A DNA stretch of 64,000 nt. It comes from a virus (Duplodnaviria > Caudoviricetes). The translations under genes and the position numbers were made by a program. Shown in pieces: positions 7,744 through 26,913 of this stretch. The DNA lies in IMG/VR virus record IMGVR_UViG_650627111_000001, positions 61,957 through 125,956 of that record. The stretch is one strand, 5' to 3'. Every line of letters begins with the position of its first letter. Position 1 is the first letter of the stretch. Below the pieces are notes generated by a model. That model saw nothing but the letters and a program-made list of their open reading frames with translations. It was not told where the DNA came from and ran no database searches.

Positions 7744-7751
7744 TAAAGCAC

Positions 7752-8588
7752 CTATTTAAGTTTAAAGAATTCTTTAGCGCCTTTACCTTTCATCTCGCCC
7801 CGAGGCCATAACCACCGAGCAGACCAGTAAAGTGGAGAGAACTTATCGTCAATACCTTTTTGATTACCAAATCGAGCATAGAAGTTATCATTAGCTTCTT
7901 CGCTTTGATTATCTGGCATACTTGGATCACCAAACCGCACTACAGCAATCTTATCACCATCTTTAACTAGAACTTTACCTTGCTTATCTCCAGAATCTTT
8001 CATAGGCTTGTTATAACCTACAAACTTCTCTCCTCGGTAAACAAGATTTCCATTATCATCTTTAGTGACTTTAGCTTTTACTAATTCTCTTGGGTCATTG
8101 ACAACACCCCAGCCACGAATTGACAATCCAGCAATCTCTGTAGTACCATCCTCTAATGGTGTAGTACGTGCCTTCCATAAAGTAGAATCGTGGAATTTAA
8201 CTTCAGCACACCATGTACCAGCTTTAACTTTCTGACCATTAACTTCACAATCAAAAGGTACAATATAGTGTTTCAGTAGCTCGACGTATTTTTTATCTAC
8301 ATCATCAATCTGGTGAAAGAGGTTCATACTTAGACGACCTTCTTTCCATGCCTTATCAAAACTCTGATAACCTTTCTCAATGGTTGTATCTGAATAATAC
8401 ATACCGTGTGCATCAGGTGTAAAAGGTTCAGCGATTATTTCAACACTGATTTGATTTTTATAATCATGACTCTTCTTAATCTCTACATCTGATTTAACAG
8501 CATCAGCAGATTTCTGAATATCTTCGATTACTTTATCTTCATTTACTTTTCCAAAACATTTTAGAAAAGCTAAAAACTCTTTCTTCAC
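7752..8588 (-). CDS. Prohead protease (XkdF-like) with extra C-terminal domain
   Basis: PFTPDAHG, NLFHQ, VKAGTW, GLSIRG motifs; C-terminal VRFGDP..FYARF..FSPLYWS module. Confidence 0.7.
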   Translation of the reverse strand: MKKEFLAFLKCFGKVNEDKVIEDIQKSADAVKSDVEIKKSHDYKNQISVEIIAEPFTPDAHGMYYSDTTIEKGYQSFDKAWKEGRLSMNLFHQIDDVDKKYVELLKHYIVPFDCEVNGQKVKAGTWCAEVKFHDSTLWKARTTPLEDGTTEIAGLSIRGWGVVNDPRELVKAKVTKDDNGNLVYRGEKFVGYNKPMKDSGDKQGKVLVKDGDKIAVVRFGDPSMPDNQSEEANDNFYARFGNQKGIDDKFSPLYWSARWLWPRGEMKGKGAKEFFKLK

Positions 8589-9259: not shown

Positions 9260-10786
9260 TTATGCTTCAGCACCACCACTATCTAATTGGGTGTTGTCAC
9301 CAAAACCACTGCTTCCATTACTTTCACCAGAACGATCACGAGAATCGAACTCTGGCATAAGCTTAGAAAGTTCCTCGACATCCATATCTTCTTCAAAGTT
9401 GTGGTCAATAGAAAGCATTTCCATTACTTTATTTACAACAACAGGAATGCGTGGAATATAAAGTTTACCTTGCTGCAATCCTTTAAAGAATTCTTTTGAT
9501 GTGAGTGGTACGATTTCACCATGTTTCCACACGGGAATATCTTTCTGACTAACTTCACCAAACTTATCAACATTGAGTCGCAGAAGAAGTGGGATAACTT
9601 GCTTGTTAATCATCTCATCGAAATTACGACAATCTGCTTTAACATAATGGAATTGCAGGTTGGTCTGACCTTCTAAGCTATTGTACGATGCTGTACCTTG
9701 CTCAGAGGAGTTGAGGTTCAATGCACCAATAGCTTTGTGAATAGCCATATTCTTTTGTGTGATTAATTCATCAAGTGTGAAGTTTTTACCACCACCATCC
9801 ACACCCTTGAAACTGAGGTTGTACAGTTTAGCACCTTGACCTGTTTCACTGTGCGTATCTGATGGTAGGAACATATAAGCTTGATCACCAGCATGAAGAT
9901 TAGTCATCTGCTGCTTCATAAGTTCCATTGCAAGGTATTCATCACTACCTACAACTTTAGCTGCTTCCATGAAGGATAATGGTAATTCCATAACAGGCAT
10001 ACCTGCCATATCCTTCGCAACACCTTGTAGCAAGAATGAGTTGATTAGACGTTTTTCACACCAAGGATCATAAGCTGCATCAAAACAAGATGATGTGATT
10101 GGTGAATAAGGTGTACCACCATAACATACAACAGCTACTTTACGAGCATCAATATCTTGGATGCCAGATACACTTGATTGTAGAGATAATCCTGTCCCCG
10201 TGGTATCACGAAAAGCTGATTTATTCTGACGCCAGTTAACAATACGATTACCACCATCAGCAGTTTCATATGGACGTGAGCGATCTAGTGTAAGTGGATC
10301 AATATATGTCATGTTACGTAGTGTACGGTAACCAACATAATCGCCAGTACCTTCCCACGTCACAACTTCAAATGGAGCGAAAGAGTTGTACACACCATCT
10401 TCTGATTGCCCTGCGATAGAGCGCAAGGTTTGATATTCCATTGTGTTAATGCAATATTCAAGGTATTGTGCAATTTCAGAAGAGATTGGATTTGTTTTAT
10501 CATATTTGAATTTACCATTAGCGATAGCTTCTTGCATGAGAAACTTACGTATCTCCCAAGAACTCCATACCGCCGCATCAAGTAACATCATTTGGTAAGT
10601 GTGGTATCGCTGACCTTGCGATAATTCATGAGGACGGAGTGCATCCTTCATGCGGCGAATAGCTTCAATAGCAATAGTACCTTTTTGTACTCCGCTACCT
10701 CGCTGCTCGCGTGTGGTATTCTGAAGTGCTTTCGTCAACAGTTTCTTTTGTTGACGATTATTCCGAGCACGATTACGGTTTGTCAT
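9260..10786 (-). CDS. Portal protein
   Basis: 508 aa directly downstream of terL; size and position typical of portal. Confidence 0.85.
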   Translation of the reverse strand: MTNRNRARNNRQQKKLLTKALQNTTREQRGSGVQKGTIAIEAIRRMKDALRPHELSQGQRYHTYQMMLLDAAVWSSWEIRKFLMQEAIANGKFKYDKTNPISSEIAQYLEYCINTMEYQTLRSIAGQSEDGVYNSFAPFEVVTWEGTGDYVGYRTLRNMTYIDPLTLDRSRPYETADGGNRIVNWRQNKSAFRDTTGTGLSLQSSVSGIQDIDARKVAVVCYGGTPYSPITSSCFDAAYDPWCEKRLINSFLLQGVAKDMAGMPVMELPLSFMEAAKVVGSDEYLAMELMKQQMTNLHAGDQAYMFLPSDTHSETGQGAKLYNLSFKGVDGGGKNFTLDELITQKNMAIHKAIGALNLNSSEQGTASYNSLEGQTNLQFHYVKADCRNFDEMINKQVIPLLLRLNVDKFGEVSQKDIPVWKHGEIVPLTSKEFFKGLQQGKLYIPRIPVVVNKVMEMLSIDHNFEEDMDVEELSKLMPEFDSRDRSGESNGSSGFGDNTQLDSGGAEA

Positions 10787-11014
10787 ACTGTTGATAGCTC
10801 CTTGAAAAATATATAGACCTATTATAACAAGATAGATCTATTACTTACTAATCTTAACATAATATAGTATAAAACTCAATCGTATTTTCACTCACGACTT
10901 GAAATTGAATAACTGATAAACAAGATTATTTATATTCGAAGATGAGAAGAATCCCCTGTAAAGTCACAGGGGAAAGGGGAGGGGTGATGTGTCCCGTATG
11001 AACGGGATGAGGGA

Positions 11015-12442
11015 TTATCGAGATTTGAAGCGCGAGAGGGCTGTGGGCGCTGAGATTGGGGGTGGGGTGAAGTGTTTGTGGACACGTAATTTCTGTATGG
11101 CGCTGAAGGCACTAGAAAAACTGTCGACGAGGTCATCGTGATAACCATTATTTTTCATACCATCAAAATTCTCAAGCTCTTGTAACATATAATCCCAGAC
11201 AGTTTGAGAAAACGAACTACGTACAAAGTAAACGTATCCAACGTAACATGCGGATGCGAAAGGTTCAAATCTTAATCGTTTAGATTTATTTGGTGGTGAG
11301 GGGTCTGGTTTTACAATAAAACCGTGTTTGGTTAGTTTTTTAGCACTCTCCTGCATTTCAACCACACCACTTTGACCTGGGTCTTTTGGTAATATGATCA
11401 CACAATCAATACCATCGTGAAATGCTTGTCTTTCTATATGAGCATCCCTAGGACCCGGGGTTTCTCTTATCCTTGCAATCTGGTTGCCATCATTATCTTC
11501 TACATAATCGCCTAAGACATAGATATTTCCATCAGGACATCTTGCAAATTTGATAGATGCCGTGTAGTCAGGATCAAGCTGTTTCGAATCCCCACCTTCT
11601 TTAGATGGTTTACTGCTGGCTTTATCATAAGCTCTTAAATAAACCGCACCCATAGGTACTTTATCTGCATATTTGATTGTACCCCTATCCCACACACCAT
11701 TAGCAGCAGGTTTCCATAACCAGTTACCTTCCAACAACAATGCGGCGTTTTGTGGGTCGTTAGCCATCAAATCGTCAGCATAATCTTCATTGTTAGCCAA
11801 CATAGCTGGGTTATCTGCCAAACTACTTGGGATCATAGTATATTTACGAGGTTTTTTATTAGGGTATTTTTCTAATAACTCTTCTTCAGACCAAGAGGTA
11901 ATTGTCTCTCCTTTGTCTGTTACATAATAAGCAGTACGACCTGAATACTCTTTTATAGCAAAACCTGTCTTTTGATCGATAAATCTTGCTAGATATTTTA
12001 AACAGAAGTGATTTGGTTCTGGATTAAGTGTGCAGCGTATATATGATCGGTACTTACTTTTACTACGCATACGGGTTCGGATATAGTTGAATGCAAATTC
12101 ACTATGGTTACCAAACTCTTCAAAATATGCAGCTGTTAGCTGAGCGCCCTGCCAGTTCTTTTTAATTTCAGCTTCGTTATCAAGGAATGAAAACTCCACC
12201 TTAGCTCCACTTGGGAATATAATAACCTTAGCTTGTTCTTTTATCTGTGCCTTACCTATAAACTTCCCTTTGTTTTCCCCAGATTGGTACCTGATGAAAG
12301 GGTCATACATTTCTTTAGCTTCAGGCCACAATGTACGTTCAATTTGCTTTAGTGTATTTCTAAAAAATACAGCATAATAATTAGGGCAATCTACATACTT
12401 CAAAACATCGAAAAGTATAGCCCAGCTCTTACCACCGCCAGC
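11015..12442 (-). CDS. terL: Terminase large subunit, exon 2
   Basis: AGGGKS, AAYFEE Walker B, CTLNP coupling motif, RAYDKA and HDDLVDS nuclease motifs. Confidence 0.93.
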   Translation of the reverse strand, partial: AGGGKSWAILFDVLKYVDCPNYYAVFFRNTLKQIERTLWPEAKEMYDPFIRYQSGENKGKFIGKAQIKEQAKVIIFPSGAKVEFSFLDNEAEIKKNWQGAQLTAAYFEEFGNHSEFAFNYIRTRMRSKSKYRSYIRCTLNPEPNHFCLKYLARFIDQKTGFAIKEYSGRTAYYVTDKGETITSWSEEELLEKYPNKKPRKYTMIPSSLADNPAMLANNEDYADDLMANDPQNAALLLEGNWLWKPAANGVWDRGTIKYADKVPMGAVYLRAYDKASSKPSKEGGDSKQLDPDYTASIKFARCPDGNIYVLGDYVEDNDGNQIARIRETPGPRDAHIERQAFHDGIDCVIILPKDPGQSGVVEMQESAKKLTKHGFIVKPDPSPPNKSKRLRFEPFASACYVGYVYFVRSSFSQTVWDYMLQELENFDGMKNNGYHDDLVDSFSSAFSAIQKLRVHKHFTPPPISAPTALSRFKSR

Positions 12443-12704
12443 CAATGGTCAGTTATAGAGGCGTTCTTGTTATTCAAGTCTCCCTCTTTCCACCGTTTCC
12501 GGTGTTGTCGGATCATATCTTCTGTGATTTATCACAGCCCTACGTTTGGAGGTTCACTTGAACCCCTACTTGCCTACACTCATCAGCAATGATCTCTCCA
12601 CCCACGAATTTAATCGTTCGGCTCGATGTTACCGTATCCTATAATTAGAACTTAGGTTTCCTCGAATTAGCAGGGTTATTTAACGTGGTACCACTGGATT
12701 ATTT
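12443..12704 (-). mobile_element. Group I intron (262 nt, no ORF) in terL
   Basis: Excision restores FYGGA|AGGGKS. 5' exon ends in U, intron ends in G. P1 GUGGUGCU/GGUACCAC has a U-G pair at the splice site; P10 CCAGU/GCUGG; P7-like GAUCAU/AUGAUC within AAGAUAUGAUCC. Confidence 0.92.
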
Positions 12705-12800
12705 AGCACCACCATAGAAACACAAGGGCATATCATCCCACGTGTTGGCAAATTTTGTTTGCGGTCCCGCTTGAGGCCTTAGTAGAACATTGTCACTCAT
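12705..12800 (-). CDS. terL: Terminase large subunit, exon 1 (32 aa)
   Basis: MSDNVLLRPQAGPQTKFANTWDDMPLCFYGGA is a typical TerL N-terminus; ATG overlaps the upstream TGA (ATGA). Confidence 0.9.
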
Positions 12801-13987
12801 TTACACCTTACTCCGTTAAAATCTTCTATAATTTTAAATATATTATCCAAATCAGCTAGTGAGAAAGTTTCATCGAATCCGTCGGGGTATTCTGATTTAG
12901 ATAATACTTTTCTGTCGAGGTTCTTCTTTATAAAAGATTCTGCTGACTTGCAGTAAGAAACCTCATCAAACTCCCAGACACCTAAAACTTGAACATCGAA
13001 GACTGTTGCAGCACTTTGTTCTTTTAACCTACGATCCCAGAAATTTGCTATTCCAACTTTTAAAGCTATAGGAATACCATTATCGGACACTTCAAAGATA
13101 TAAGCTTGCCTTTGGGTTCTACCTACTTCATGTGGACAACCTTTCCTCTTATTTATGTGATTATCATAAGAAGATTCAAAAGTACCTTTACAATCATTAC
13201 AATAGATAGTGCTAGGGGTTCGGGAGCATATATAATCGTATTTTGAATAATCAAATTTATTTCCGAATATTTTCCTACCCTCTACTTCAATCCTACTTGC
13301 ATGATGTCTCAGGCCATCCCCTCTCTTCTCCTCTGCACAATGAGGGCAACCGTGTCCGTTCATGAAATTATTTATAGCTACATCATAATGTTTATGGTTT
13401 TTACATTTAATAACCATCCTAGTAGTATTCTTATTTTCATATTCACCAAGCCAACCGAGAAATTTCAAACCCCTTTCAACACAAGCTTCTCTTATTTGGA
13501 ACTCTCTCAGTTGTTTCGTCCAACGTTGAAATTTGTGAGGATTACAACGACAAGTCTTTCGATCGGAAGTTACATGGTCTAGTCTATGCTTATAAGGTGT
13601 GTTACATTCACTGCAATACCACAACCACTGTTCCTTTTTACTTTTTGTGCGCGAGATAAGTTCGAGATTAGGGTGCTTACTGTTAACAATCAATATCTCA
13701 TCTTCAAGAGGTTTCTCTCTGTCCTTACCCGCCTTAATGAAAGAACATTCAGTACAGGAGGTACTTCCTCTATTCAATTGATTAGTAGACTTAGCTTGTA
13801 TGTTACCACAACCGCACTTACAGAACCACCATGTATGTGGTGCAGACCTTTCTTTCATTTTCAGAACTTCAAACTGACCGAACACTTGACCAGTTAAATC
13901 TTTAAATTTTTTATTGTCTGTTTTAAACTCACAATTATGAAGCTCTACATCCTCTGGTGTATAGTATCTTGTCCTCTTATGTTTCAC
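12797..13987 (-). CDS. Free-standing homing endonuclease (Cys-rich repeats plus T5orf172-like domain)
   Basis: KDLTGQVFG..WFCKCGCGN, GCPHC repeats, C-terminal AYIF..LKVGIAN..RRLKEQ..E; likely GTG start at 13987 after GGAG and promoter 14024-14032. Confidence 0.8.
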   Translation of the reverse strand: MKHKRTRYYTPEDVELHNCEFKTDNKKFKDLTGQVFGQFEVLKMKERSAPHTWWFCKCGCGNIQAKSTNQLNRGSTSCTECSFIKAGKDREKPLEDEILIVNSKHPNLELISRTKSKKEQWLWYCSECNTPYKHRLDHVTSDRKTCRCNPHKFQRWTKQLREFQIREACVERGLKFLGWLGEYENKNTTRMVIKCKNHKHYDVAINNFMNGHGCPHCAEEKRGDGLRHHASRIEVEGRKIFGNKFDYSKYDYICSRTPSTIYCNDCKGTFESSYDNHINKRKGCPHEVGRTQRQAYIFEVSDNGIPIALKVGIANFWDRRLKEQSAATVFDVQVLGVWEFDEVSYCKSAESFIKKNLDRKVLSKSEYPDGFDETFSLADLDNIFKIIEDFNGVRCK

Positions 13988-14053
13988 GCATATCTCCATA
14001 TTATTTGGTATAATATAATATACATTATAACACATTCCTGTTGTATTCTCTAC

Positions 14054-14083
14054 AAAAACCAATACCCCACATTCGCGGGGTAT
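14054..14083 (-). terminator. Intrinsic terminator
   Basis: ATACCCCGC-GAAT-GTGGGGTAT followed by TGGTTTTT on the minus strand. Confidence 0.65.
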
Positions 14084-14105
14084 CACTCTTTCTATATCAA
14101 AAACA

Positions 14106-14498
14106 TCACAAAATCACCGTACGCGAGTACACATCAGCTTTAGATCGTGTTCGTGTCATCATATACATAATAAACTCTGACGAAGATACATTACTTACCT
14201 TAACAAAATCCCCACCTTCATACTTACCGAAGCAATTCGTATCAATGATAACCGTTGTTAATTGTGCACCTGCATAATCATAATGTGGGTGATCTCTATC
14301 TAAACTTGCAACCTTCAATCGTCCACCATTCTTGAAACGTACAAGATGTTTCTGTGTATTTACTGCACAATCGTAATTACCATAGATAGTCTCTAGTAAT
14401 GATGACTTATCCTCTGGGTGAACAAATACCACGCCATAATAATCAACATCATTCCAACGTAGTGATTCAAACTCTAATTCTGCAATTATCTTTTCCAT
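14106..14498 (-). CDS. Small protein resembling part of the TerL ATPase domain
   Basis: VRFKNGGRLKVASLD..YAGAQLTTVIID..YMMTRTRSK aligns by eye to TerL IIFPSGAKVEFSFLD..WQGAQLTAAYFE..YIRTRMRSK; AGGAGG RBS before ATG 14498. Confidence 0.7.
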   Translation of the reverse strand: MEKIIAELEFESLRWNDVDYYGVVFVHPEDKSSLLETIYGNYDCAVNTQKHLVRFKNGGRLKVASLDRDHPHYDYAGAQLTTVIIDTNCFGKYEGGDFVKVSNVSSSEFIMYMMTRTRSKADVYSRTVIL

Positions 14499-14512
14499 AT
14501 TTCCTCCTATCA

Positions 14513-14788
14513 TCACCGCCCCTTCCGCGCACCAGAGCCCCATTGTCTCCGATAATGCTCTCCATCCCTCGTGACGAACTCCTCTGTGCACTTTAACTCC
14601 AGTGCACGAAAGTAATTACCCTCGTTCACAACACGCTTCCTCTCTGTCACGAGGCGGTATTCCTCTAGCTTAAGATTCTCTCGTGCGATAAGGGTTTCTC
14701 TTTCGTGGTGAAGGTTAATCCCATAGAAGCCTAATGTTGTCATCGCTGTAAGTGATAGTACAATCACTAGTGTTGTTTCGCATTTCAT
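14513..14788 (-). CDS. Small membrane-anchored protein
   Basis: N-terminal hydrophobic helix; AAGGAG RBS; TTGACG promoter near 14845. Confidence 0.6.
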   Translation of the reverse strand: MKCETTLVIVLSLTAMTTLGFYGINLHHERETLIARENLKLEEYRLVTERKRVVNEGNYFRALELKCTEEFVTRDGEHYRRQWGSGARKGR

Positions 14789-14936
14789 AATCAATCTCCT
14801 TTAGTGTTTCAGTGAACTATAATCAACATTCATATCCCCGTCAACAACTATTTTAAAATTCTTTCGATAAAATTTATTGTTGACATAGAGTTTGTTCGTG
14901 TTATGATTGCTGTATGTTCAACGAAGGGGGTAATAA

Positions 14937-15832
14937 GTGAATCTAGAACACATTAAACCATCAACACTAACAGATGAAGAACGCATCACATACATCAACT
15001 GGTTGTTGGTTGAGCTGAATAACCACACAGATCCATTTTCATCAGTGATGAATCGTATCCGTAAAATGAGTGAAGATTTCGACACACTCCACAGGGACGC
15101 TTATCATCTATTAGAATGTGTAGATTCTGGTGAGGTTAAACTTTCTGCAAGTGAGCGTATCAAATTATTCAATAAGATGGTGAATAACGAAGGTGATCGT
15201 CGTAAGAACAAGGAATTGCTTGAACGTGGAGAAGCGTTGGAAACTTTGCTTCGTGAGAAGCCAGTACCAATTTACCGCACGACAGTGCAGAATGATATAA
15301 GTCAGCTTGGTAACAAGCACAAAGGTATTCGTGATAAAGCGAAAGATCGTGGGATTTTGTTGAAGGAGAAATTGTTATGATTTTAAAGAATGCATTAATG
15401 GATATATTTGGTTTCGAATGTGAGTGTATCAAACCACCACATGAAAGACGTTGGTATTACCCTACAACAGATTATACACCCTTATTACTTTTGGTTAATA
15501 TTAAACCATTTGATGGTGAAGAGTATTTTATAGAAGGTTATAAATCTTATAAGTTCAAAAGTACTGAGTTTGACTTGGACTTTAGTGACCTTGAATCTTA
15601 TGCCTTAGAAAGCTATGGTACAGAGTCTTATTCTGAGAATCATGAAGAGTTAACGTTATCTGCACTAAAAACTTGTACCTCATTAATTGAAAAGTTTAAC
15701 GAAGATAATAAAGGTCGAGATATTATATATGCCCAAAATTTATACGAAAGTGACAAAGGATTATCGGAAGGTTGGAAATTGATTAATTTCACCGGTAAAT
15801 GGAAACTTTGTGTTAATTACCGTTTGATATAA
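14937..15832 (+). CDS. Two coupled hypothetical proteins (14937-15380, 15377-15832)
   Basis: ATGA overlap; TTGACA..TATGAT promoter at 14879. Confidence 0.7.
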
Positions 15833-15835
15833 ACA

Positions 15836-15868
15836 ACAAAACCCAGCCATTTGGCTGGGTTCTTCTTT
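15836..15868. terminator. Bidirectional intrinsic terminator
   Basis: AACCCAGCCA-TT-TGGCTGGGTT with A- and T-rich flanks. Confidence 0.8.
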
Positions 15869-15875
15869 ATTTATA

Positions 15876-16250
15876 TCAAGCTTCTTTCGGCACTAAGCTA
15901 ATTAAAGAGGATACACTGGATACAGTATCTTTCTTTTTCGCAATTTCTTCACTTGCACCTTCACCAACGACACTTTCGTAATAATCATCAAGAAGTGCTT
16001 CCGCACGATCAATAAACCTTTCAATCAAACGGATTTGTTCTTTATTGACAGATTTCATATTGCCTAGTGCAACTTCCATTAGGATTTTCTCGAATTGTTC
16101 AAGGTTGTTGGCAATCTCTACATCACTGATGTTTTTGCTTGCTTGGATGCGATCAATCACTGATTCCAAATCACCCACAACTGCTGCTGCTGGACGTCCT
16201 CGTCCTCGCTTACGTTGACTATTCTTAGCTCGAACTTTAATATTCGCCAT
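15876..16250 (-). CDS. Possible terminase small subunit or DNA-binding protein
   Basis: Basic N-terminus with KRGRGRP, helical body, upstream of the terL cluster; assignment is positional. Confidence 0.4.
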   Translation of the reverse strand: MANIKVRAKNSQRKRGRGRPAAAVVGDLESVIDRIQASKNISDVEIANNLEQFEKILMEVALGNMKSVNKEQIRLIERFIDRAEALLDDYYESVVGEGASEEIAKKKDTVSSVSSLISLVPKEA

Positions 16251-16370
16251 TCAATACCCCTTAATCATGTAATAATTTTCATAAATGTAATATAAAAGAA
16301 AAATAACTGTAGTTGGGATCATTTCATCACCTATTCGTTGTACTTATTTAGAATGTAATATCTCGTTGTA

Positions 16371-16543
16371 AAAAGAAAACCCTGCCTCCACAGATGAAAG
16401 CAGGGTAGAGTGTAACGGTACAAGGAGGGAATACACGTACACAAATGGCAGTGATGTCGAAGTTCCCTTGTTCTGATTCTTATATGGGAATGTGAGGGAT
16501 ATGAAGTCTACCTAAGAGGAGGAGGAACTTGGTAAACTCCATA
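16371..16543 (-). ncRNA. Candidate small RNA with anti-SD loops
   Basis: TGTTATAGT at 16549-16557; 12-bp hairpin with UCCUCCUCCU loop; second UCCCUCCUU; terminator ACCCUGCUUU..GGAGGCAGGGU-UUUCUUUUU; no ORF. Confidence 0.6.
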
Positions 16544-16583
16544 CAATAACTATAACACAGTTGAGAATTATTATCAACAATAA

Positions 16584-16766
16584 TTAATAGCTATTAACTT
16601 CATCTTCACTATACAAGCCACTATCATCATTAATATGTGCATGAACATAATCATCACGAGATGTGTAACTTTTTGGGTTTGAAGCATTGATACACGCTGG
16701 GCAAATATCTAAACTTTCATCAGTATATACTGCTGGTGTATAAAATCGTCCGCAAATACATTGCAT
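16584..16766 (-). CDS. Small zinc-ribbon protein
   Basis: CICG..CPAC; AAGGAG RBS. Confidence 0.6.
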   Translation of the reverse strand: MQCICGRFYTPAVYTDESLDICPACINASNPKSYTSRDDYVHAHINDDSGLYSEDEVNSY

Positions 16767-16767
16767 A

Positions 16768-17316
16768 TTATTTCTCCTTAATGTTAATCTTCTTAATCAA
16801 CTCTTGTGCAATAGTATCTTTATCTTTACTACCTTTGGTAGAGCCAAAAAAGAATTGAATAATAGACGAGATCAGAGTACCCATAATAAAACCTGTGACA
16901 GTTTGCACTGTTGAGATATTATCTGCTGGTATAGTTACAAAGGTAATACACAGTAAGTAGATTGCGGCAAATGCGCTCCACCCTGTTGCAAAGTAGTACA
17001 AGAATCTCTTACTAAACAAATCTTCTTGTTCTAAAGCTTTTTCCTGCATCTCACGTGCGTCACGTACATCTTGTAAGTAAATTTCGTCTAATCTGTACTT
17101 ATCGTTCATGACTGCTTTCTGGAATTCAAGTGCAGTTTGTGGGTCAGCCATAATGGCTTCTAATGCTTTGTTCTTATCAGAGATGCCTGTAATATTTGTT
17201 GCAATATTAAGTACCTCTGTTGTCATCTTCTCAGCTTTATCACCACCAAACCATTTAGCAAAATCGGGCAGAAGATTGATTAAGGTTGGGATGGCTGTTG
17301 CTAGCAATGGTGCCAT
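16768..17316 (-). CDS. teaA: Holin (probably ICP1 gp137/TeaA)
   Basis: Two C-terminal TM helices, DVRDAR..QFFFGS..GSKDKD holin-like motif; name from gene counting. Confidence 0.65.
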   Translation of the reverse strand: MAPLLATAIPTLINLLPDFAKWFGGDKAEKMTTEVLNIATNITGISDKNKALEAIMADPQTALEFQKAVMNDKYRLDEIYLQDVRDAREMQEKALEQEDLFSKRFLYYFATGWSAFAAIYLLCITFVTIPADNISTVQTVTGFIMGTLISSIIQFFFGSTKGSKDKDTIAQELIKKINIKEK

Positions 17317-17326
17317 AATGATATCC

Positions 17327-17782
17327 TCATAATAAAACGTATTCCATAACCAACATCATCGTACATAATGTGGCAAGATATTCATCATTACCACCTATTA
17401 TATCTCCATTCCTGAAATTGAACACTCCGAAAAGTATTAACTCTCGTATAACTTGATTAGAGTTATTACTGTATAGAGGAAAGTTTTGTACGATGTACGG
17501 GTCATTTGTTATTAGTGACCAAAAGTTTATGAACACTAATATTATAACTAAACTGAAACAAACCTGTGTAGTTTTCGTTGTTGCATAAAGTAAACTTAAC
17601 GTCATTGCCGATAAGAATATCCCCATCCCAACATACAATGAATACTCTGCAGGAACGTAGCTTTGGAATATAACAGAGAATGCATACCCGTACAGGATTG
17701 TACGAGATATATACCTAGTTGTCATATCCTTGCTGAATTCACCATACAGCCAAAGTATTAATGGTAGGAGGAATGGGATCAT
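17327..17782 (-). CDS. arrA: Multi-pass membrane protein, probable antiholin (ICP1 gp138/ArrA)
   Basis: Several hydrophobic segments, adjacent to holin; name from position and recollection. Confidence 0.5.
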   Translation of the reverse strand: MIPFLLPLILWLYGEFSKDMTTRYISRTILYGYAFSVIFQSYVPAEYSLYVGMGIFLSAMTLSLLYATTKTTQVCFSLVIILVFINFWSLITNDPYIVQNFPLYSNNSNQVIRELILFGVFNFRNGDIIGGNDEYLATLCTMMLVMEYVLL

Positions 17783-17795
17783 AACTTACCTTACA

Positions 17796-18140
17796 TTATT
17801 GCTTCGAACGTTCTTCTAATCTCGCAGCATTGACAGCAGTTTGAGTTGCAAGTTTTGATGTTGTCTCTACAATCAAATCGAGTTTACGATGCATATCTTT
17901 CCGTTCTTCACGATCTTCTGACATGGTTTTGTCAAGAGCATCCATCCTATGCAAGATAGTTTGTTGAGACTCTTCTAGTTCATCAATTCGTAGAAGAACT
18001 GCATCACGCTCTTTCTTTTTTGCTGCTAAAAATACACGAACTTTGTTACCAATCCACCCAACTAACGCTGCAAAAGCAATGTAAAACTTTAAAGCTTGGT
18101 CACTAATCAGAGAACCAAAGTGATTCAAGAAATCAATCAT
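17796..18140 (-). CDS. Membrane-anchored coiled-coil protein of the lysis cassette
   Basis: One TM helix then coiled coil; likely start ATG 18140 downstream of promoter 18190-18198. Confidence 0.65.
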   Translation of the reverse strand: MIDFLNHFGSLISDQALKFYIAFAALVGWIGNKVRVFLAAKKKERDAVLLRIDELEESQQTILHRMDALDKTMSEDREERKDMHRKLDLIVETTSKLATQTAVNAARLEERSKQ

Positions 18141-18256
18141 CGCAAATCCTGTTATAATTATTCTAAAGTATGAAAAAGGGTGTATAGAAATTATAACATA
18201 ATTTATCATTAATGAGAATCATTTTTATTGAAATGTCAAGAAGATTTTATACAGGT

Positions 18257-18287: not shown

Positions 18288-19142
18288 ATATTATTCGGGA
18301 CGTCTCCCTAGATATTCACAGTGTCTTACTTCTGGCTCCGAAGAGTCTTAACTTACCTTTCGGTATGTTTCTTACCTTGCCTTGCGGCTACCAGCTCCAT
18401 AGGGTTCACGTAATTACACTACGCTTAGGATGCTATTGCTGTCCGAACTTGCTATGATTTACGCTGATTATAGTTGTCACTCAGGTGCATTGCTTATTTG
18501 CTTTACCATCGGGTAGCTACTCTCTGCAAGTGTAGACATCTATAACACAGATAAGAACTGTGGGATGAAGTTTCTACAACTTTATCGTGACAACACCTCT
18601 AATCCATTTTACTTGGTGACGAGGTCAGTTCCAAGGATTTTTAACAACTAGTTTACTCTAGGAACCGAGGTATTACCTCTCAATACTGCAATGCTTTTGC
18701 CATCCAAATATGTTAGGTAGGTTACAGTCATTGCTTTATGTAACAATCACCCTAAGACATTATCATCTCTGAAACATGGATGTGTTAGTGTAATCGTAAT
18801 ATCCATAGGTGACGTCGGCCTGTTCTAATCTAGAGGATTGCTAGATCTGTGTTTAAAGTTGTCACAGCAACACTACCATTCCATATCGTCTTCAGGTAGC
18901 TTATCCCGCCTACACAAAACCGAAGTTTCTCGATGTGTAGGGTACTCACTAGGTGAGATTATTTTATCCTGACCCTCGTCTCAGGTAAATGCTAATCGAG
19001 GTAGCAAAAGTTGCCGCACTATTCACGGCAGTCAAACTATTCATCTCCAGATTCCGGTAGCGAGTCATCCTCTGGTCATGTGCAAGTCGTCACTTTGCAT
19101 TTCGCCTTAACATAACGGTCGTAAGGTGAATTCTTTAATCTA
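18257..19142 (-). ncRNA. Large (~890 nt) structured non-coding RNA
   Basis: No credible ORF; promoter and terminator at its ends; UUCG and GNRA tetraloop hairpins; long-range complementary segments. Confidence 0.8.
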
Positions 19143-19178: not shown

Positions 19179-20266
19179 GAGATTATTCGCAACTTTATTT
19201 CGTAACATTGCTAATGTTTCTTCGAGCAAATCAATCATATCTCCATCAGAGAATGTTTGCAAGATATTTCGCCCACTAAAGCAATCACCTTGATTAACAG
19301 TCACAGTTGTAACACCTTCTTCAGCGACATCAAAGTTAATATACCCAGATTCGCTTCCATTGTCAAACGAAAGTTCGACTTCATTTTCATAAATTGTAAT
19401 CATTACCAATTATCTCCTCTTATTCAAAAACTATTGATTTCGTCTAAAAGATTTTCAACCTCTTCTTCCAGAGCTTTAATACGCATTGCCATTGCAAGGA
19501 TATAATCCTCAAGATGAAAGCAATAGAAACTTCCGTTACGAAAAATCGCTTGCTCACCTTCGTTATATTCGTATGTGTATTTACCTAATTCAATTGTGAA
19601 ATTTTCCATTACTCGCCAACCTTATCATAAACTAAACCTTCCGAATCCACACCAAAGATCTCAAGATAACCATTTTGTGTGGCGATTAAATCTTTCACTT
19701 CCATATCAGATAAATCTACACCAATACAGGTTTCTACAACATCGTCAATATCATGTGGGTGACGGTCAACTCGATAAACATCATATAACATAGTTAGTCC
19801 TCCTCCACTTCCCACGCTACATCACCTAGTAATACTTTAATAAGTTCATACGCCTGTTGTGGTGAGTTTACTCGTGTTTTAAACTGATAGTCTTCAAAAC
19901 CCAATCCACTCCAAACACTAATCACACCATTATCCAGTACTTCGATTACACCGCCAAGGTCACCAACCTTACTATACAAACCTATGCCATTGCCATATGG
20001 GTATTCTCCGCAAGGTGTATTTTTCAAGAAGTAGTCAACTACTTCTTCATATGTATTAAAACTTTCCATAATCATTTCCTCCGTTTCGATTGTTCCCATC
20101 GAGTTTGAAATTTCAAATACTCTGACGGGTGATAATATAAAATTTGGTCTAACACTTTACGATCCCAGTTTACCTCATCTGTACCAGATGTCAATAAATT
20201 TTCTAGATAATCTATTGACCACTTACGTGTAGGTATCCAAGGTCGTGGTCTTTTCTTGTTTGCCAC
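19152..20266 (-). CDS. Cluster of five small hypothetical proteins
   Basis: Tightly packed ORFs 19152-19409, 19424-19609, 19609-19815, 19794-20099, 20072-20266 with RBSs. Confidence 0.6.
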
Positions 20267-20268
20267 GA

Positions 20269-20499
20269 TTAACCTCCTTGCACTAAGGAAACCTCTTTCT
20301 TTCTGTCACCAATACCCAAATCCATCATAATATCACAACAACTTTTGAATGCGTTGAATTGATCTTCTGGTAAATAAAATCCTTCACGATTCATATAGAA
20401 TTTAGTATTGTCATAATCAAATCCACTGAAAACACAATGTACTAAAAGTTTATAGCCATCCATTGTATTATTCGGGTTTACAAAGTTGATAATTTTCAT
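20269..20499 (-). CDS. Small protein; positionally ICP1 gp145 (reported anti-DarTG factor AdfB)
   Basis: 76-aa ORF two genes downstream of the helicase; identity rests on gene counting and memory only. Confidence 0.35.
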   Translation of the reverse strand: MKIINFVNPNNTMDGYKLLVHCVFSGFDYDNTKFYMNREGFYLPEDQFNAFKSCCDIMMDLGIGDRKKEVSLVQGG

Positions 20500-21035
20500 G
20501 ATATTTCCTCCACCATTTTCATAACATAATTATATACATCGTGTTGTGATTGTTCAATATCTTTTCCATCTTCAAAACGCATCTTGTATCCTTTAGGTAA
20601 TGTCATTGTGCAGGGAATATCCATGATAACCGAACATACACCTGCTGCAATATCTAAACCTGTTTGAGCTCCAGAATATAAATGGTCAATACCAATATGT
20701 TCATGGATCGGTGATAGTAAATGCAGCAACCATAGGTTCACTTTTTCTTGTATCCAACCATACTTCTGGCAAGTGTATATACTATTACCCACAATATTCA
20801 TTGTCTTACAACCATCACGCTTCATTCGTTGATACAACACTCTCGCACAAGGTAGTGGATCGCTGCGTAAATCAAAATGAATATATTTATCACCTGCAGC
20901 TTTCTTTGTAAGCTTCTCACCTGCCGTGTCGAAATCCAACGCAATTGCTACAGTTATATCTGCAACAGAAGCGTTGTGATATGTTCTAGGTGCGTAACTT
21001 GATGACTTGTGTTCTTGAATTATCAATTTACTCAT
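20496..21035 (-). CDS. SLOG-like / putative molybdenum-carrier family protein
   Basis: YAPRTYHNASVADITVA, NIVGN, SGAQTGLDIAA motifs. Confidence 0.6.
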   Translation of the reverse strand: MSKLIIQEHKSSSYAPRTYHNASVADITVAIALDFDTAGEKLTKKAAGDKYIHFDLRSDPLPCARVLYQRMKRDGCKTMNIVGNSIYTCQKYGWIQEKVNLWLLHLLSPIHEHIGIDHLYSGAQTGLDIAAGVCSVIMDIPCTMTLPKGYKMRFEDGKDIEQSQHDVYNYVMKMVEEIS

Positions 21036-22447
21036 ATAACACTCTTCTCCTTACATTCAAACCAGAAATTGATGCTATCTTCACAACACTTAATGTGCTG
21101 CGGTGAGATCGGTCTTGCTAGGATAAGATTATTAATATCTGTTCCACGACTTAACCCAAGATAGACAAAATTCTGACCAAAATCCTTCAACTTGTCCCAA
21201 GTATATAGGTATGAATCCTCTACGTCAAGCACATATTTCTCTTTGATAGTTAATCCTTGAGATTTCATTATGCTGACACACGAGCTTGGTAGTACTGGTA
21301 AACAAAGCATTGTACCTACCACACGTTCCTTCATTTCTTCCTTGATACTCCCATCCTCAGCGTAACTACTTTCGACATAATGTTCTTTATTCTCCCATTT
21401 ATGAACATTAACTCTTACTTGCTCACCTGAATGGTCAAATTTAATAATACAACCTTCTGTATCTGCGAGGGTGATCACTCCTGTGCTCCCGTTCTGGTAT
21501 GTACCTTCTGGACAGTTTACAATTGTCATCACACGCTGACCTACACATATAGTTACACCTTCTTCACGCACCAAAGTATCTTTGATATTAAAATCTTTCT
21601 TGATGATAGGTTTAAATGTAAACTTGCGGTTAGGATTTCTTGCAAGAACGGCGTTATTAATCTTATCTACAGTTTTGTTTGTTGCAGCTAAGATCATTGT
21701 ATCTTCTGGATAATCATATTCAACACGCTGATTCAACCACTTCAAGCAATTATCAAATCTTCCTTTTTGGTTGTAGCGTATAACATCCAAACAAGCTTTA
21801 TATACCTTATCTTCTTGTCGTTCAACTTTATCAAGTAGGTAGTATGTAAAATCAAACCTATCCCACACAGTAGATTTGAACATTAGATGATGGTTCCATC
21901 GAGAGTGAATCTCCCGTTTTACATCTTCATCAGACATAACGGTTACAGCCTGACAAGGGTCACCACACAATAATAATCGAATATTACGTTCTGGTCGGTT
22001 ACGATTCTTACGATTAAAGCGTTCAATACGACGCCAAATCAAATCTAAATTATCTGAGTTTAAGAGGTATGCTTCATCGATAACAATAACCTCGACCAAA
22101 GCTGAATTGAATAGTCCAGAAGTCTTTTGAGATACCTTGCGATAATTCAATTCCGTTGCAGGTTTAATACTCAATGATAAACCTGAGTGAGCAGTCCCCA
22201 TTCCAATACCATTTGGCATATTTTGTGAGCTAATACCACTTGACCCGAAGAATACAATCTTATCACCATAAAACATTTTCAAGCATGTTAGTAAGGTTGA
22301 TTTTCCAGCACCAGCAATACCTACAAGGCATCCATGTCCACTACTCTTGAAGATGAAATGTTCTAGGAAATCTCGTTGCTTTTCATTTAGGTTTACTGGT
22401 GCATTGTCATACAACCATTGTAATGTTTTTGTTGTTTCAATCTGCAC
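21032..22447 (-). CDS. SF1B (Pif1/RecD-like) accessory helicase
   Basis: GIAGAGKS, IVIDEA, GDPCQ, KVERQ, KSQGLT, YLGLSR. Confidence 0.9.
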   Translation of the reverse strand: MQIETTKTLQWLYDNAPVNLNEKQRDFLEHFIFKSSGHGCLVGIAGAGKSTLLTCLKMFYGDKIVFFGSSGISSQNMPNGIGMGTAHSGLSLSIKPATELNYRKVSQKTSGLFNSALVEVIVIDEAYLLNSDNLDLIWRRIERFNRKNRNRPERNIRLLLCGDPCQAVTVMSDEDVKREIHSRWNHHLMFKSTVWDRFDFTYYLLDKVERQEDKVYKACLDVIRYNQKGRFDNCLKWLNQRVEYDYPEDTMILAATNKTVDKINNAVLARNPNRKFTFKPIIKKDFNIKDTLVREEGVTICVGQRVMTIVNCPEGTYQNGSTGVITLADTEGCIIKFDHSGEQVRVNVHKWENKEHYVESSYAEDGSIKEEMKERVVGTMLCLPVLPSSCVSIMKSQGLTIKEKYVLDVEDSYLYTWDKLKDFGQNFVYLGLSRGTDINNLILARPISPQHIKCCEDSINFWFECKEKSVI

Positions 22448-22575
22448 ACTTTAACCCTCCTTACGTCCAAAATTATGTCTTTTGTTAATATACCAATCCT
22501 TATAAAACTCAAGCTTCTTATTGTCACGTCTTAGTTTTATCACATAACACCATGTTGCTGCAAGTGCAATGTAAA

Positions 22576-23984
22576 TCATAACACCTCCCAAAGTTTATAC
22601 TTCAACTCATAAAGTTCATCACACTCATCTTGTAAAGCTTGTCTCTGCTCCATAATCTTCTCTAAACGATTATCTGTACGTTTTAAGATAGACTTCAACC
22701 AACCTTTGATGTCACCATAACGTTTACGGTAGTCACCCGATACACATTCTGCAATCTTACTGTCGCCCAACCAATCTTGTTCATTAAACTTACCCACATA
22801 AAGAAAGTTTCGACCTTGCCAACTTACTACAGTAAACAAAATCTTATCGATAGGATTTCCTTCTGTATCTCGGTCGATGGAATTTTTAATCACCTCTTCA
22901 ATAACAAATTTACTCATAACCCCTCCAAATCCTCTCTAAATCAATCCACACTCATCGAAAATACCTTTACCCATACGAACGTATTTACACCATTTAAAAT
23001 TGATTATACACTCGTGTAGGAGGTTTATCACTCTTCTAACAAAACCGCTTCCCACTCACCCATACTCATGTGCTCAGTGAGATTACCAATAATATCGTAT
23101 GCCTGAGCAATGTCAACAAATTTCGTCGCATCGAATGGATTTTCTGTCACCGACAGAGTGTAATCACATGTTCCATCAGTGTGAATCATATCTGCGACGA
23201 TAACTGCATATTCGTGATATGCAGACTCTTGGTTGATGAGGATGTATTTGTTCATAATCACTCCCACTCCTTAATTTCATCTTCGATTTGTGATGGAATC
23301 CAAGTTGAATCAGATTCATCTGCAGCGAAGCGCCACAAACCTTTATCAACACGATAAAATACAAATTTATCTCCGTTGTAAAAACGGACTTTACATTCGT
23401 TAACTAGTAATGCCATTATTCTCCTCCAATAATTAATCCAGACACAAGGATATTACCTGCATCTGGATGTTGTGTCAACATTAGTTTTCTAGTTTGATAT
23501 TATCTTCCATAAAAACTATAGACTCTTGTAACGTAGTGAGTAAATCTTTAGACTTTTGTGAAGATTTGAGTCCGTACTTTGTGTGGAACATATCCGAAAC
23601 TAGACTACTTACTAAAGATTTAACTGTAGAATCTCCATGCTGATCACCTAAGTATTTTGTAAAATATTTAATATAATCATCTATATGTTTGTGTTTCTTT
23701 TTACTGTTGGGTAAATATTTCAATGGAAAACTAAAGCTTTGGTCATAAGTCGCCCACACTGTCACAGTTTCTGTTTTATAATCGATGACAACAGGTGGGA
23801 AGTGTGTATAAAACCAAGATTGCTGCTTATTATCAAAAGTATACTCCTCTTTACCGAGGTAAACAAGCCCTTTCTTATGATCAATAGAAAACACATCTCC
23901 ATCATATTTTTCTGACCAACCAGATTCCCCATACGTACCAAAAACATAACCCGTACTTGTTGTGTTAAGATAATCAATTTTCAT
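22576..23984 (-). CDS. Small hypothetical proteins (22576-22917, 23028-23267, 23481-23984 and shorter ORFs)
   Basis: ORFs with GGAG RBSs; TTGACA promoter at 23473-23478. Confidence 0.55.
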
Positions 23985-23998
23985 ATAATTTCTCCTTC

Positions 23999-24484
23999 TT
24001 ATTCAATTTCAACCAAATCAACTAGTGTTGGCAAGTGTGAAATGTGCAAGGTCGAGGCTTTCACAGTCACCATCATCCCACATTTCAAGTTTAAGTGCGT
24101 AAGTCATGTTATTTCTCCTCCTCTTTCAAAATCAATACCATTAGCTTTACACACCTTCTCCAACATGTCAACAATAATGTGTCTGTGGCAGAAATCACCA
24201 GCTTTACAATAGCAAGCAAGACAAACCTCATCCATCTTACACAACCCTAACAAGCTAACTTATTCTGTTGGTAGCTTTGTCTCATTAATGGGATAAACTT
24301 AGATGTGTACAGATCCTCACCGCCACCATTCTTGTATTCCATCAGAATTTACCATGTCGGTAGCGAAAGTTACCTCAGTGTCGTTAGTCTTCTTTTTATC
24401 TTTTACTGCAACAGTTGAGTTGCTAAGAAATTGTAATTTAATATTATAATCCCCAACTTCCTTCAAAATATCAGTTAAATTCAT
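23999..24484 (-). pseudogene. Scar of truncated genes including a DUF488-like remnant
   Basis: Fragments PTW*ILMEYKNG..LMRQSYQQN and MDEVCLACYCKAGDFCHRHII in different frames with stops. Confidence 0.55.
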
Positions 24485-26224
24485 CTACTTTCCCTCCACA
24501 ATATCTTCAATTTCAAACCAATCAATGAATCCGTATCTACCATCTTCTTCAAGAAGTTGTTTCAAATATGTAACAATATCGCCACCATAATACTTTTGCA
24601 ATGTCTCATCATCGATAAAATCTCGTTTGTCATATGACACTCGCAACAAAAGGTAATCTTTGTTTTCGTTCATTTCATCATCCTCCCAATAAATTCATCA
24701 ACAGTATCAGTAATCTCTTCATCAGACATAATCTCTGGCATAGAAGATTCATATCCTGACATGTACATCCCTGCTTCCATCCATACCTTCTCATCGAGAA
24801 GATATTCACCTTTGTAATGCGGAAGCGTATCATCTTCGTAAAGGTTTGTGTGGATGGATGAGATCCATTTTGATTTACGTTTAGTCACGATGGTAATCCT
24901 CCCATGCAACATTTAACTCGACAACGTCAAGTAGTTGGTCAAATGGGTCTACTAGTTTCTTGGTGGAGTAAGCTACCTCATAAGAATCAAATTCCTCAGC
25001 ATATTTCAGTCTCTCCCAACCAATATCTGGAGGGTTCAAAACAACACCTGTATATTCACACCGATAAATGACATATTCAAGAAAGCTGTACTTATCCTTC
25101 TTATCCCAATCCTTACCACGGAGAATGTATGTTGCCATAATCAAATTCCTCCTTCCAATTCATATTTAATCCAATCAATCTGGTATTGCTCCTCATCAGA
25201 TAAGCGCATAGGAATCGCTACAAAGCCTGCTACGAGGTGATAAGGTTCAAAGGTGTACTTACCCTCACCATCAGAGATAAACGTCCCTACGGTGCGTTGA
25301 GAGCGTGAATTTACATCTACAACATCGAATGTACATTCGATGACACCCTCTTGAATTTTCAATAGTGGTTTCATAAACCCTCCTCTAGTAGCTATCACCG
25401 ATGTCATATTTAAAATAAATCTTCAATACTTCAGGTCGAGCACGAAAAGTGTAAATATCATCGTATTTGTTAGTCTGTTTGACGTATTGTTGACCTTTCT
25501 TAATTTTCCAACCATCTGCTTCGGCTTGTGCTAGTACAACAACTTCCTCTTCAGTGAAGTCGTCTGGGTAAACCATACCTTGCAGTAATTGTTCACAAGC
25601 ATCACAACGATAATCTTTTCGTGCTGTTGGATACTCTTCTCGTAAAACTGTAACTCCCATAATTTCCTCCTTATTAATGTACACGTTCACTATAATGCGA
25701 GTAAAAGTTAGCAGCAATTAAATTGCAGTCCAATTCAAACTTCAACTCTTCGAGCATAGTATCAATGTTAATATCACCTGTCAACACTTTATCAAGGTTG
25801 ATATCAATCTCGATAGGGTTATCCAACATTTCGGTGTAGATAGCAATTGACAAGAATGTATGCTCACCTTCATTATCAAATGCATCTCCATAGCGAATTT
25901 CTACAGAGAATGCTCGAAGCTCACGTTTGATTTTCTCTAAGATTTGTACTGTTTCTTTCATAGGATCTTATCCTCCCTCATAACTCGTTTAATGATTGCA
26001 CGGTAGTATTGTGCACGACCTTCTTCTGTTTCAAATTCATCACGGATTCCACCAGAATCAGAGATAACCACTCTACCACTATATTTAGCCATCTCAGTAG
26101 CTTTTTGTTTGAACATTTCAATCTCTTTCATCTCTTCTCGTGATAATATCAATCTCAGAAACCACTTCATCATAAACTTTCTCCTCTTCAAATTAAGCAA
26201 TCTGCCGAACACATGGTGAATCAT
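24485..26224 (-). CDS. Cluster of seven small early-type hypothetical proteins
   Basis: Overlapping start/stop ORFs downstream of TTGACA..TATGAT promoter near 26246. Confidence 0.6.
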
Positions 26225-26320
26225 AACACGGAAGATTCCTGTGTCAAGAGGGCGAGTTATGAAAATTAAAATTATTTGTGTGAGAAAGGTGTTGACATGA
26301 AGAAGAGGTGTGTTAGTATT
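26219..26320. promoter_or_regulatory. Divergent sigma70 promoter pair at the strand switch
   Basis: Minus TTGACA..TGTTATGAT near 26246-26220; plus TTGACA..TGTTAGTAT near 26292-26319. Confidence 0.7.
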
Positions 26321-26366
26321 TGTTGTATTGCTGGTACATGGTTATGTTTATTTATAGGAGATTAGT

Positions 26367-26913
26367 ATGACAACAATGGTTATAGACCTAGAAGAGGGGA
26401 TTATCATGGCAGATAGTCGTGGTACAGAAACTTTGGAAGTATCTAACTGGAAGATCTTACCTTACCCCAAGAAAAATTACGAATGTAGAGAATAAGTTTT
26501 CCAAAGTACAGAAAATTTTCTCAGTTTACGGTTATGTAGTTTCAGGGAGTGGGAGTTTATTCATCCTAGAATACTTTCGTGGCCTGTTGGGTAAAGGTGA
26601 GTATAACTTTAAAAGTAGATATATTGTAAAATCTGATTTTGATTTTAGTGACACCAATGTGTATATTACAAAGAAATCCTGCGGTAAGAACCACTGTATG
26701 GAGTTTAAGGTTAAATCAGAATGGCTACCTTTCAATTATAGACTTTTGAAAATAACCAAATCTGTTATAAGAAAGCGTATGGTTGTATCTGGCTCTGGTG
26801 CAGCCTTTGCTTCTGGAGCAATAGAGGCTGGTGCAACTATGGATGAGGCGATTAATATTGCATCTAAGTTGGATAAATTTACAGATGACAGATTACAGTG
26901 TGTAATCTTATAA
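26367..26913 (+). pseudogene. HslV/proteasome-beta-like Ntn peptidase, frameshifted
   Basis: AGGAG-ATG 26367 gives MTTMVID..IMADSRGT; the other frame carries KIF..SGSG and GSGAAFASGAIEAGA..EAINIASKLD. Confidence 0.7.

Follow-up and report, generated by a model that had tools for sequence, protein, structure and literature searches.

What is encoded in the gap that follows the lysis cluster of an ICP1-like vibriophage? The DNA analysed here, called the window throughout, is a stretch of 64,000 nucleotides (positions 61,957 to 125,956) of the virus record IMGVR_UViG_650627111_000001 and forms the second half of that 125,956-bp record; its ICP1 identity and gene numbers were assigned from the layout, counting down from gp139 next to an abundant RNA. 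Two genes below the genes for transmembrane proteins, the gp136-like and gp135-like genes are separated by 333 bp without an annotated open reading frame (ORF), and an earlier sequence-only reading had placed there a candidate late small RNA with loops complementary to ribosome-binding sites. We conclude that the gap holds a genuine non-coding RNA gene with a predicted product of ~170 nt, which is a member of a family common to ICP1-like vibriophages. In ICP1 a non-coding gp135-gp136 region of ~300 bp is transcribed at 12-16 min, according to the accessible part of Barth et al. (2020, PMC7567579), and by gene order the element of the window is almost certainly the same locus. The two share the size and position of the gap and the hyper-abundant long non-coding RNA upstream of the cluster; what the accessible part of that report describes is transcription only, without structure, motif, boundaries, relatives or function.

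Structure of the RNA element

Folding of the minus strand from 16542 to 16371 gave a minimum free energy (MFE) of −48.2 kcal/mol (z −3.64), and 0 of 200 shuffles were as good; for the plus strand of the same stretch z was −1.69, and 12 of 200 shuffles did as well. The predicted start of the RNA lies 7 nt past the −10 element and its predicted end lies in the T tract (Table 1). Hairpin 1 consists of a 12-bp stem, AUGGAGUUUACC/GGUAGACUUCAU, and 3 further pairs, which together close an 11-nt loop whose CUCC cores are unpaired with a probability of 1.0. The loop of hairpin 3 is unpaired with a probability of 0.92, and in most relatives this hairpin corresponds to the loop hairpin that comes last ahead of the terminator. 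The promoter, the stem, both loops, the C-rich patches and the terminator listed by the sequence-only reading were thus all present on the minus strand, each in the place given for it.

Presentation of such motifs in stable loops is rare in this genome. CCTCC occurs at 147 sites, both strands included, and clusters of at least three sites within 200 nt are confined to the minus strand, where there are two; the RNA element is one of them. A hairpin loop with a local energy no higher than −8 kcal/mol encloses only 5 of the 147 sites, 3 of them in this RNA. The other triple-CCTCC cluster, at genome positions 25290-25488 (minus strand) and outside the window, appears antisense to plus-strand genes and holds a stable hairpin (−15.7 kcal/mol) with the loop AUACCUCCC.

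No tandem repeats were present in the RNA, and Rfam gave nothing inside 16371-16542; its sole match in the gap was CRISPR-DR40 at 16275-16304, with 22 bits against a threshold of 42 and an E value of 8.2. On the loci of 10 relatives Rfam returned tRNAs plus two weak unrelated matches only.

Counterparts in related vibriophages

Relatives were picked by way of neighbouring proteins, from 107 records with a TeaA-like match and 16 with a gp136-like match, together with the uncultivated viral contig L024. From these matches 14 other records were examined, which with the window makes 15. A counterpart of the RNA was present in 15 of 15, so that the loop conservation in related phages which the sequence-only reading had named as a check on itself was indeed found. 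The 15 records contain 11 distinct sequences: those of the window, HNL01 (Aliivibrio fischeri), the eugene type, 1.084, 1.101, 1.121 (Enterovibrio), 1.170, RYC, 424E50-1, 11895-B1 and L024. The eugene type comprises near-identical copies in 355E48.1, eugene 12A10, K412, F100 and 1.193. Locus searches that started from gp135, or from P0007 among viral and metagenome contigs, found nothing, and the region had no blastn match among 50,697 phage records outside the window's own lineage.

The counterpart RNAs range from ~90 to ~240 nt and carry one to four loop hairpins, the stems of which have no common sequence. When five 3' modules were aligned, CCTCCTT was the sole invariant block; MAFFT and RNAalifold applied to these modules brought only the motif and a portion of the terminator into register and left the stems unaligned, and conserved structure was judged from a separate fold of each sequence, not from column-wise covariation. 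Among 10 RNAs folded in this way, 29 of the 35 CUCC sites had a probability of at least 0.8 of being unpaired, and the next two letters after CUCC were UU in 22 cases and, in overlapping repeats, UC in 9. In most members the loop of the last hairpin before the terminator resembles UUCCUCCUU(G/A); the motif of 1.084 stands unpaired directly before the terminator, not in the last hairpin loop. The sense strand folded better than the antisense strand for 10 of 11 RNAs. As the loops are conserved while the stems diverge, the C-rich loops are presumably the functional part.

Every copy has a terminator at its 3' end and a strong sigma-70-like promoter before it, either directly or upstream of one to three adjoining tRNA genes. 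The RNA follows phage tRNA genes, at the end of the tRNA cluster, in six lineages, and in the eugene-type phages, 424E50-1, 11895-B1, 1.193, F100 and 1.121, opposite-strand and/or tRNA genes lie between it and the lysis genes. Because several relatives keep the RNA apart from the lysis genes, and all copies hold CCUCCUU in loops and have a promoter, their own or that of the tRNA genes, as well as a terminator, we conclude that the element is an RNA gene and not merely the 3' untranslated region (UTR) of the lysis operon. The sequence-only reading had recognized such a 3' UTR as a finding that would speak against it, and the opposite-strand and tRNA genes of the relatives counter this objection.

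Promoter and transcription

The promoter of the RNA (16577-16549) is sigma-70-like, TTGATA-17-TATAGT with TG present, and matches at 10 of 12 positions. Its extended −10 sequence has no other exact copy in the window, and by count there is no enrichment of copies with at most one mismatch (26 found, 29.6 expected). The exact sequence TGTTATAAT occurs in 15 copies in the genome, 11 of which are on the minus strand, and 8 of these 11 precede minus-strand ORFs of the portal, capsid, tail and lysis clusters by 28-99 nt; moreover, the TTGATAA context of the RNA promoter also precedes TGTTATAAT at two tail-cluster ORFs. From its placement, TGTTATAAT is a candidate late-promoter signature of this phage. 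Because it is so placed at structural and lysis ORFs we regard the RNA promoter as late-type, as had been claimed from the sequence, and this assignment fits the timing of 12-16 min. Within the window TGTTATAAT was seen at 3860, 9183, 10821, 14024 and 18190 on the minus strand, often with TTGATAA ~13 nt upstream.

Stranded reads of the public run X15 covered the RNA to a depth of 12,847-13,083 on the minus strand and of less than 5 (0.65-4.5) on the plus strand. This bore out the orientation given by the sequence-only reading. Past the terminator the depth fell to 7,000-8,060 over gp135, a drop of ~45%, with ~55% of transcription reading through; the terminator is leaky. Runs X8 and X18 were without phage reads and constitute no test, and run X1 yielded a contig spanning the whole stretch, which indicates presence only. 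Two X15 reads join position 16518, in loop 1, to position 18815 in the long non-coding RNA and are too few to interpret. The phage in runs X1 and X15 differed from the window by three single bases (16801 C>T, 17949 A>G and 18762 A>G), none of them in the RNA element.

Shine-Dalgarno usage and a proposed mechanism

The motif CCUCCUU is the core of the 16S rRNA 3' tail (Shine and Dalgarno), and it is exactly complementary to AAGGAGG. Among 245 crudely called ORFs, 190 have an upstream match to AAGGAGG of at least 4 nt and 132 have one of at least 5 nt; the earlier statement that the motif is complementary to the ribosome-binding sites of most genes was therefore roughly right. The predicted energy of duplexes with the loops averaged −9.8 kcal/mol for initiation regions and −6.2 to −6.7 kcal/mol for internal gene segments, and the top-ranked predicted pairing sites were initiation regions of the GAGGAGG and GGAGG types. 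Longer genes paired slightly better (Spearman −0.18), and length is not the mark of a target.

The use of GGAGG differed between classes of genes. Lysis, capsid and tail genes are placed in minus-strand clusters in the accessible part of Barth et al. (2020, PMC7567579), which was the basis for the set of genes that we treat as late. GGAGG was found upstream of 3 of the 37 inferred late-cluster genes and of 43 of the 153 others (Fisher p 0.0099); the inferred late clusters have mostly AAGGAG, that is, the sequence minus its final G, or weak sites. By comparison, 12 of the 15 genes in a block of small genes on the minus strand (19794-26735), directly upstream of the long non-coding RNA, have GGAGG (p 8e-7 versus the late genes). 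From this contrast between gene classes we infer that an RNA presenting CCUCC would have some selectivity. The depth of X15 reads over 19739-20200 was 5-20 times below that of the lysis genes.

Pairing of the loops in trans with ribosome-binding sites is, to judge from these sequences, the most likely mechanism, and we propose it tentatively, with slightly less than even confidence. Late transcription of the RNA would start at an extended −10 promoter of the structural and lysis type and stop at the leaky intrinsic terminator, with read-through from the lysis genes covering it as well. Its working parts would be two to five single-stranded CCUCCUU motifs presented by hairpin loops, which would pair in trans with AAGGAGG or GGAGG Shine-Dalgarno (SD) sequences and compete with 30S subunits for them. 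Messages that depend strongly on an SD sequence, here mainly those of small non-structural genes, would be translated less, and late structural and lysis messages, which have AAGGAG without the final G or weak sites, would be spared.

A more far-reaching form of this proposal, possible and in our view rather doubtful, is that of a dedicated mimic of the 16S tail, a multivalent CCUCCUU RNA that would titrate strong SD sites late in infection and thereby re-weight initiation cell-wide, away from early and accessory messages with GGAGG, including any such messages of host or satellite, and toward late messages that avoid GGAGG. The T4 endoribonuclease RegB inactivates early messages by way of their GGAG ribosome-binding sites and aids the switch in expression; RegB is a protein nuclease, whereas the phage RNA would mask the site by pairing, with the same functional logic. 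If the mimic were real, it would be an RNA-only equivalent of RegB and a new viral way to manipulate the interaction between SD and anti-SD sequences. The silencing of the satellite PLE, which the sequence-only reading had offered among the uses of such an RNA, is unlikely to be its primary purpose, as the same RNA occurs in relatives whose hosts are other Vibrio, Aliivibrio and Enterovibrio.

Several observations weigh against a discrete RNA that acts on ribosome-binding sites. The depth of X15 reads over the RNA was comparable to that over the upstream lysis genes (9,960-15,940), with continuous coverage, and it was far below, by ~25-fold, the depth of the neighbouring long non-coding RNA (53,000-356,000). 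None of the 10 read-end rows listed, out of 16, fell at the predicted boundaries of the RNA. Note that X15 was analysed in 157-nt bins with 150-nt paired reads, which cannot resolve, and may under-sample, a species of 172 nt. Of the small-RNA claim, therefore, the strand-specific, structured, non-coding element with its promoter and terminator stood, and the discrete species of ~170 nt did not emerge from reads whose depth was continuous with that of the lysis genes. The RNA is not mentioned in the main text, as far as accessible, of the Hi-GRIL-seq preprint of Dunham et al. (2022).

As to selectivity, the late set was drawn up from strand and cluster, not from measured timing. The mean energy of the best loop pairing was −11.4 for late genes and −12.3 and −14.9 for two other sets, with p 0.086 for late genes versus the rest. 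The loops would pair with the AAGGAG of late genes too, which makes selectivity a matter of degree. In eugene 12A10 the difference in GGAGG had the same direction and was not significant (4 of 25 versus 58 of 203, p 0.24). A genome-wide duplex scan gave no extended specific target, only long interrupted duplexes that resembled noise. Finally, the constant presence of a gp135-like neighbour is left unexplained by pairing with SD sequences.

The gp135-like gene and alternative explanations

The RNA adjoins a gp135-like gene in 15 of the 15 records, being upstream of it in 13 and downstream in 1.084 and 1.101. In the window an unannotated micro-ORF fills part of the space from the RNA terminator to the gp135-like gene, and its stop abuts the start of gp135 (TGAATG), an arrangement which suggests translational coupling of the two. 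A hydrophobic ORF of 21-34 codons, rich in tyrosine and methionine, occupied this interval in all 10 records checked among the 13 with the RNA upstream (window, L002, L004, L007, L010, L011, L017, L018, L020 and L024). Conserved in the gp135-like family are a basic KRGRGRP-like motif at the N-terminus and ISLVxKEA at the C-terminus; the body of the protein is helical, and in the window the gene stands directly upstream of the large terminase gene, which is interrupted by an endonuclease gene. RNA, micro-ORF and gp135-like gene form a fixed three-part module beside packaging genes.

This constant adjacency, in either order, is a pattern typical of functional partners, and it is an argument for an unlikely alternative, namely that the RNA belongs to a ribonucleoprotein, as its RNA half, or serves to decoy a protein, and that its CU-rich loops bind the gp135-like product or a host factor with affinity for pyrimidine-rich single strands, for example ribosomal protein S1. 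The arginine-rich, basic N-terminus and helical body of gp135 would suit such a partner, and one short motif repeated across loops suits multivalent binding of a protein. The gp135-like protein has, on the other hand, no RNA-binding domain that Pfam would detect; PADLOC gave no match for any protein neighbouring the RNA, gp135-like included; and a structure model of gp135 (pLDDT 67.8) found no match at E ≤ 0.001 in a fold search. Furthermore, it would then be a coincidence that the motif is the complement of the consensus ribosome-binding site.

Could the element act mainly in cis? It might form the 3' UTR of the upstream unit together with its terminator, or a leader like the lambda pR'-tR' 6S RNA, its leaky terminator setting the flow of transcription into the micro-ORF, the gp135-like gene and the packaging genes, with the short RNA a by-product. 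The continuous depth from the lysis genes and the ~55% that passes the terminator into gp135 agree with this explanation, as do the position of the element directly upstream of micro-ORF and gp135-like gene in 13 of the 15 records and the absence of any strong promoter seen by eye between terminator and gp135 in the window. We nevertheless consider it quite unlikely. In 1.084 and 1.101, where the gp135-like gene comes first, the RNA is served by a TTGACA-17 promoter of its own and the next genes by a separate one; this switch in order does not suit a role purely as 5' leader and favours a gene in its own right within a conserved module. The six lineages with the element after tRNA genes, not lysis genes, point the same way, and a by-product would not hold CCUCCUU invariant in loops amid the divergence around it.

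A third alternative has the RNA serve as a decoy of the 16S 3' end for a host ribonuclease, a defence toxin, or a maturation or hibernation factor, so that it would protect ribosomes late in infection and not block mRNA. The loops of several members read CCUCCUUA or CCUCCUUG, which presumably match the 16S terminus, and the six lineages that place the RNA at the end of phage tRNA clusters put it among translation-related RNA genes. The loops copy just 7-8 nt, however, and none of the neighbouring rRNA structure, and no candidate partner is known, which makes such a decoy improbable. A small peptide can be dismissed almost entirely: a 20-codon ORF (MEFTKFLLLLGRLHIPHIPI) starts with an AUG at the predicted 5' end, where it would make a leaderless message, and is open through loop 1, but the relatives read the motif as FLLL, PPSS, SSS and others, in differing frames or in no frame, and neither frame nor peptide is conserved among members.

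Features of the locus and neighbouring genes

The features of the RNA and its neighbourhood are collected in Table 1. The window is consistent with ICP1 in the size of its record, in a minus-strand cluster of three membrane-protein-like ORFs, in the lack of tRNA genes within the window, and in an ORF-less stretch upstream of the membrane-protein cluster that gives rise to an extremely abundant transcript; the match was judged against the accessible parts of published ICP1 descriptions (Barth et al. 2020, PMC7567579; review PMC9040626). Pfam searches with eight neighbouring proteins gave nothing at E ≤ 0.01, and when four were rerun at E 10 none reached a family cut-off.

Table 1. Predicted features of the gp136-gp135 gap and adjoining genes, with positions in the window
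Feature	Position	Strand	Description and basis
−35-like hexamer	16572-16577	minus	TTGATA within TTGTTGATAA; promoter motif scoring
Extended −10	16549-16557	minus	TGTTATAGT, late-class promoter; promoter scoring and placement of TGTTATAAT
Non-coding RNA	16371-16542	minus	172 nt, predicted from fold and minus-strand reads; ends predicted
Hairpin 1	16501-16542	minus	15 pairs and one bulge; apical loop UUCCUCCUCCU at 16517-16527
Central hairpin	16464-16499	minus	weak; C-rich patches UCCCUC and UUCCC; MFE and centroid structures disagree; not conserved in relatives
Hairpin 3	16410-16442	minus	9-nt apical loop UCCCUCCUU at 16422-16430
Intrinsic terminator	16369-16406	minus	stem-loop 16406-16379 (12 pairs, 6 G-C) and T tract TTTCTTTTTA
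Micro-ORF	16251-16322	minus	23 codons, MIPTTVIFLLYYIYENYYMIKGY
gp135-like gene	15876-16250	minus	124 aa; phrog_3330; constant neighbour of the RNA
gp136-like ORF	16584-16766	minus	60 aa; fourth and last lysis-cluster gene; upstream of the RNA
gp137-like ORF	16768-17316	minus	number by counting; TeaA/gp137 identity not confirmable by Pfam
gp138-like ORF	17327-17782	minus	number by counting
gp139-like ORF	17796-18209	minus	number by counting; adjoins the abundant RNA

The long non-coding RNA (18441-19116, minus strand) showed, in run X15, sharp 5' ends at 19111 and 19116, 3' ends at 18441 and 18463, and a strong internal end at 18818. Its 5' ends lie ~30 nt downstream of the start expected from a TTGACA-18-TAAGAT promoter (19178-19149).

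The interruption of the large terminase is due to a 429-aa HNH endonuclease ORF (12797-14086, minus strand) within 11015-14591, which is flanked by a 161-aa ORF upstream (14106-14591) and by a terminase-family ORF (11015-12445). An endonuclease-interrupted terminase is mentioned for a relative in the accessible part of an ICP1 review (PMC9040626). The small terminase of ICP1 was unidentified as of a 2024 preprint, and the position and basic N-terminus of gp135 made it a candidate; a T4-like small terminase appeared only at rank 21 (E 6.6), which gives no support. A pac site in the gp135-gp136 gap was rejected, as the literature puts pac between gp1 and gp2.

Relation to known systems

In its working principle the phage RNA would, by analogy, most resemble the C-rich-loop regulators of Staphylococcus; RsaE/RoxS is also among the C-rich-loop regulatory RNAs. 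With S. aureus RNAIII and RsaA-K (UCCC motif; Geissmann et al. 2009, PMC2790875, in its accessible part) it shares unpaired C-rich loop motifs complementary to G-rich ribosome-binding sites and a Rho-independent terminator, and a block of translation initiation would be the expected outcome for both. The phage RNA differs from these RNAs in belonging to a lytic phage of Gram-negative hosts and in carrying, several times over, the full anti-SD heptamer CCUCCUU, not UCCC, and it has no sequence or Rfam relationship to them.

Other phage RNAs resemble it in placement. Lambda 6S RNA (pR'-tR') is a short terminated transcript by the late genes, and T4 species 1 and 2 are small stable RNAs of the tRNA cluster. 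The likeness lies in the position beside late genes or at the end of a tRNA cluster; for the phage RNA the order relative to its neighbour is reversed in two members, and we know of no repeated anti-SD loops in lambda 6S RNA or in species 1 and 2. Type III toxin-antitoxin systems consist of the repeats of the ToxI RNA, a terminator and the toxN gene. Their layout of promoter, repetitive RNA, leaky terminator and protein gene is similar, but tandem repeats are absent from the phage RNA, the order of the genes varies and the neighbouring proteins are without a PADLOC match, and we rejected this assignment. Within the same infection system, the long non-coding RNA of ICP1 and SviR of PLE are also late non-coding transcripts, and SviR acts on 5' UTRs and lowers the translation of phage targets (Dunham et al. 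2022 preprint, in its accessible part); both are encoded at loci different from that of the phage RNA and have no sequence similarity to it.

The transcript itself is already in print. Its structure, the CCUCCUU motif, the RNA family, the linkage to tRNA genes and gp135, and the micro-ORF appear to be new: a search of the open literature, with supplements and subscription journals outside its scope, found none of them described earlier, nor any translational control by such mimicry in phages of Gram-negative bacteria. The main predator of epidemic Vibrio cholerae is ICP1, whose control of its own gene expression is largely unknown according to the accessible part of a review (PMC9040626). A conserved RNA that displays several copies of the sequence with which the ribosome recognizes mRNA points to translational control by mimicry, for which the RNA family offers HNL01 on Aliivibrio fischeri as a harmless experimental system, and through the RNA the phage may be able to influence the choice of messages for translation.
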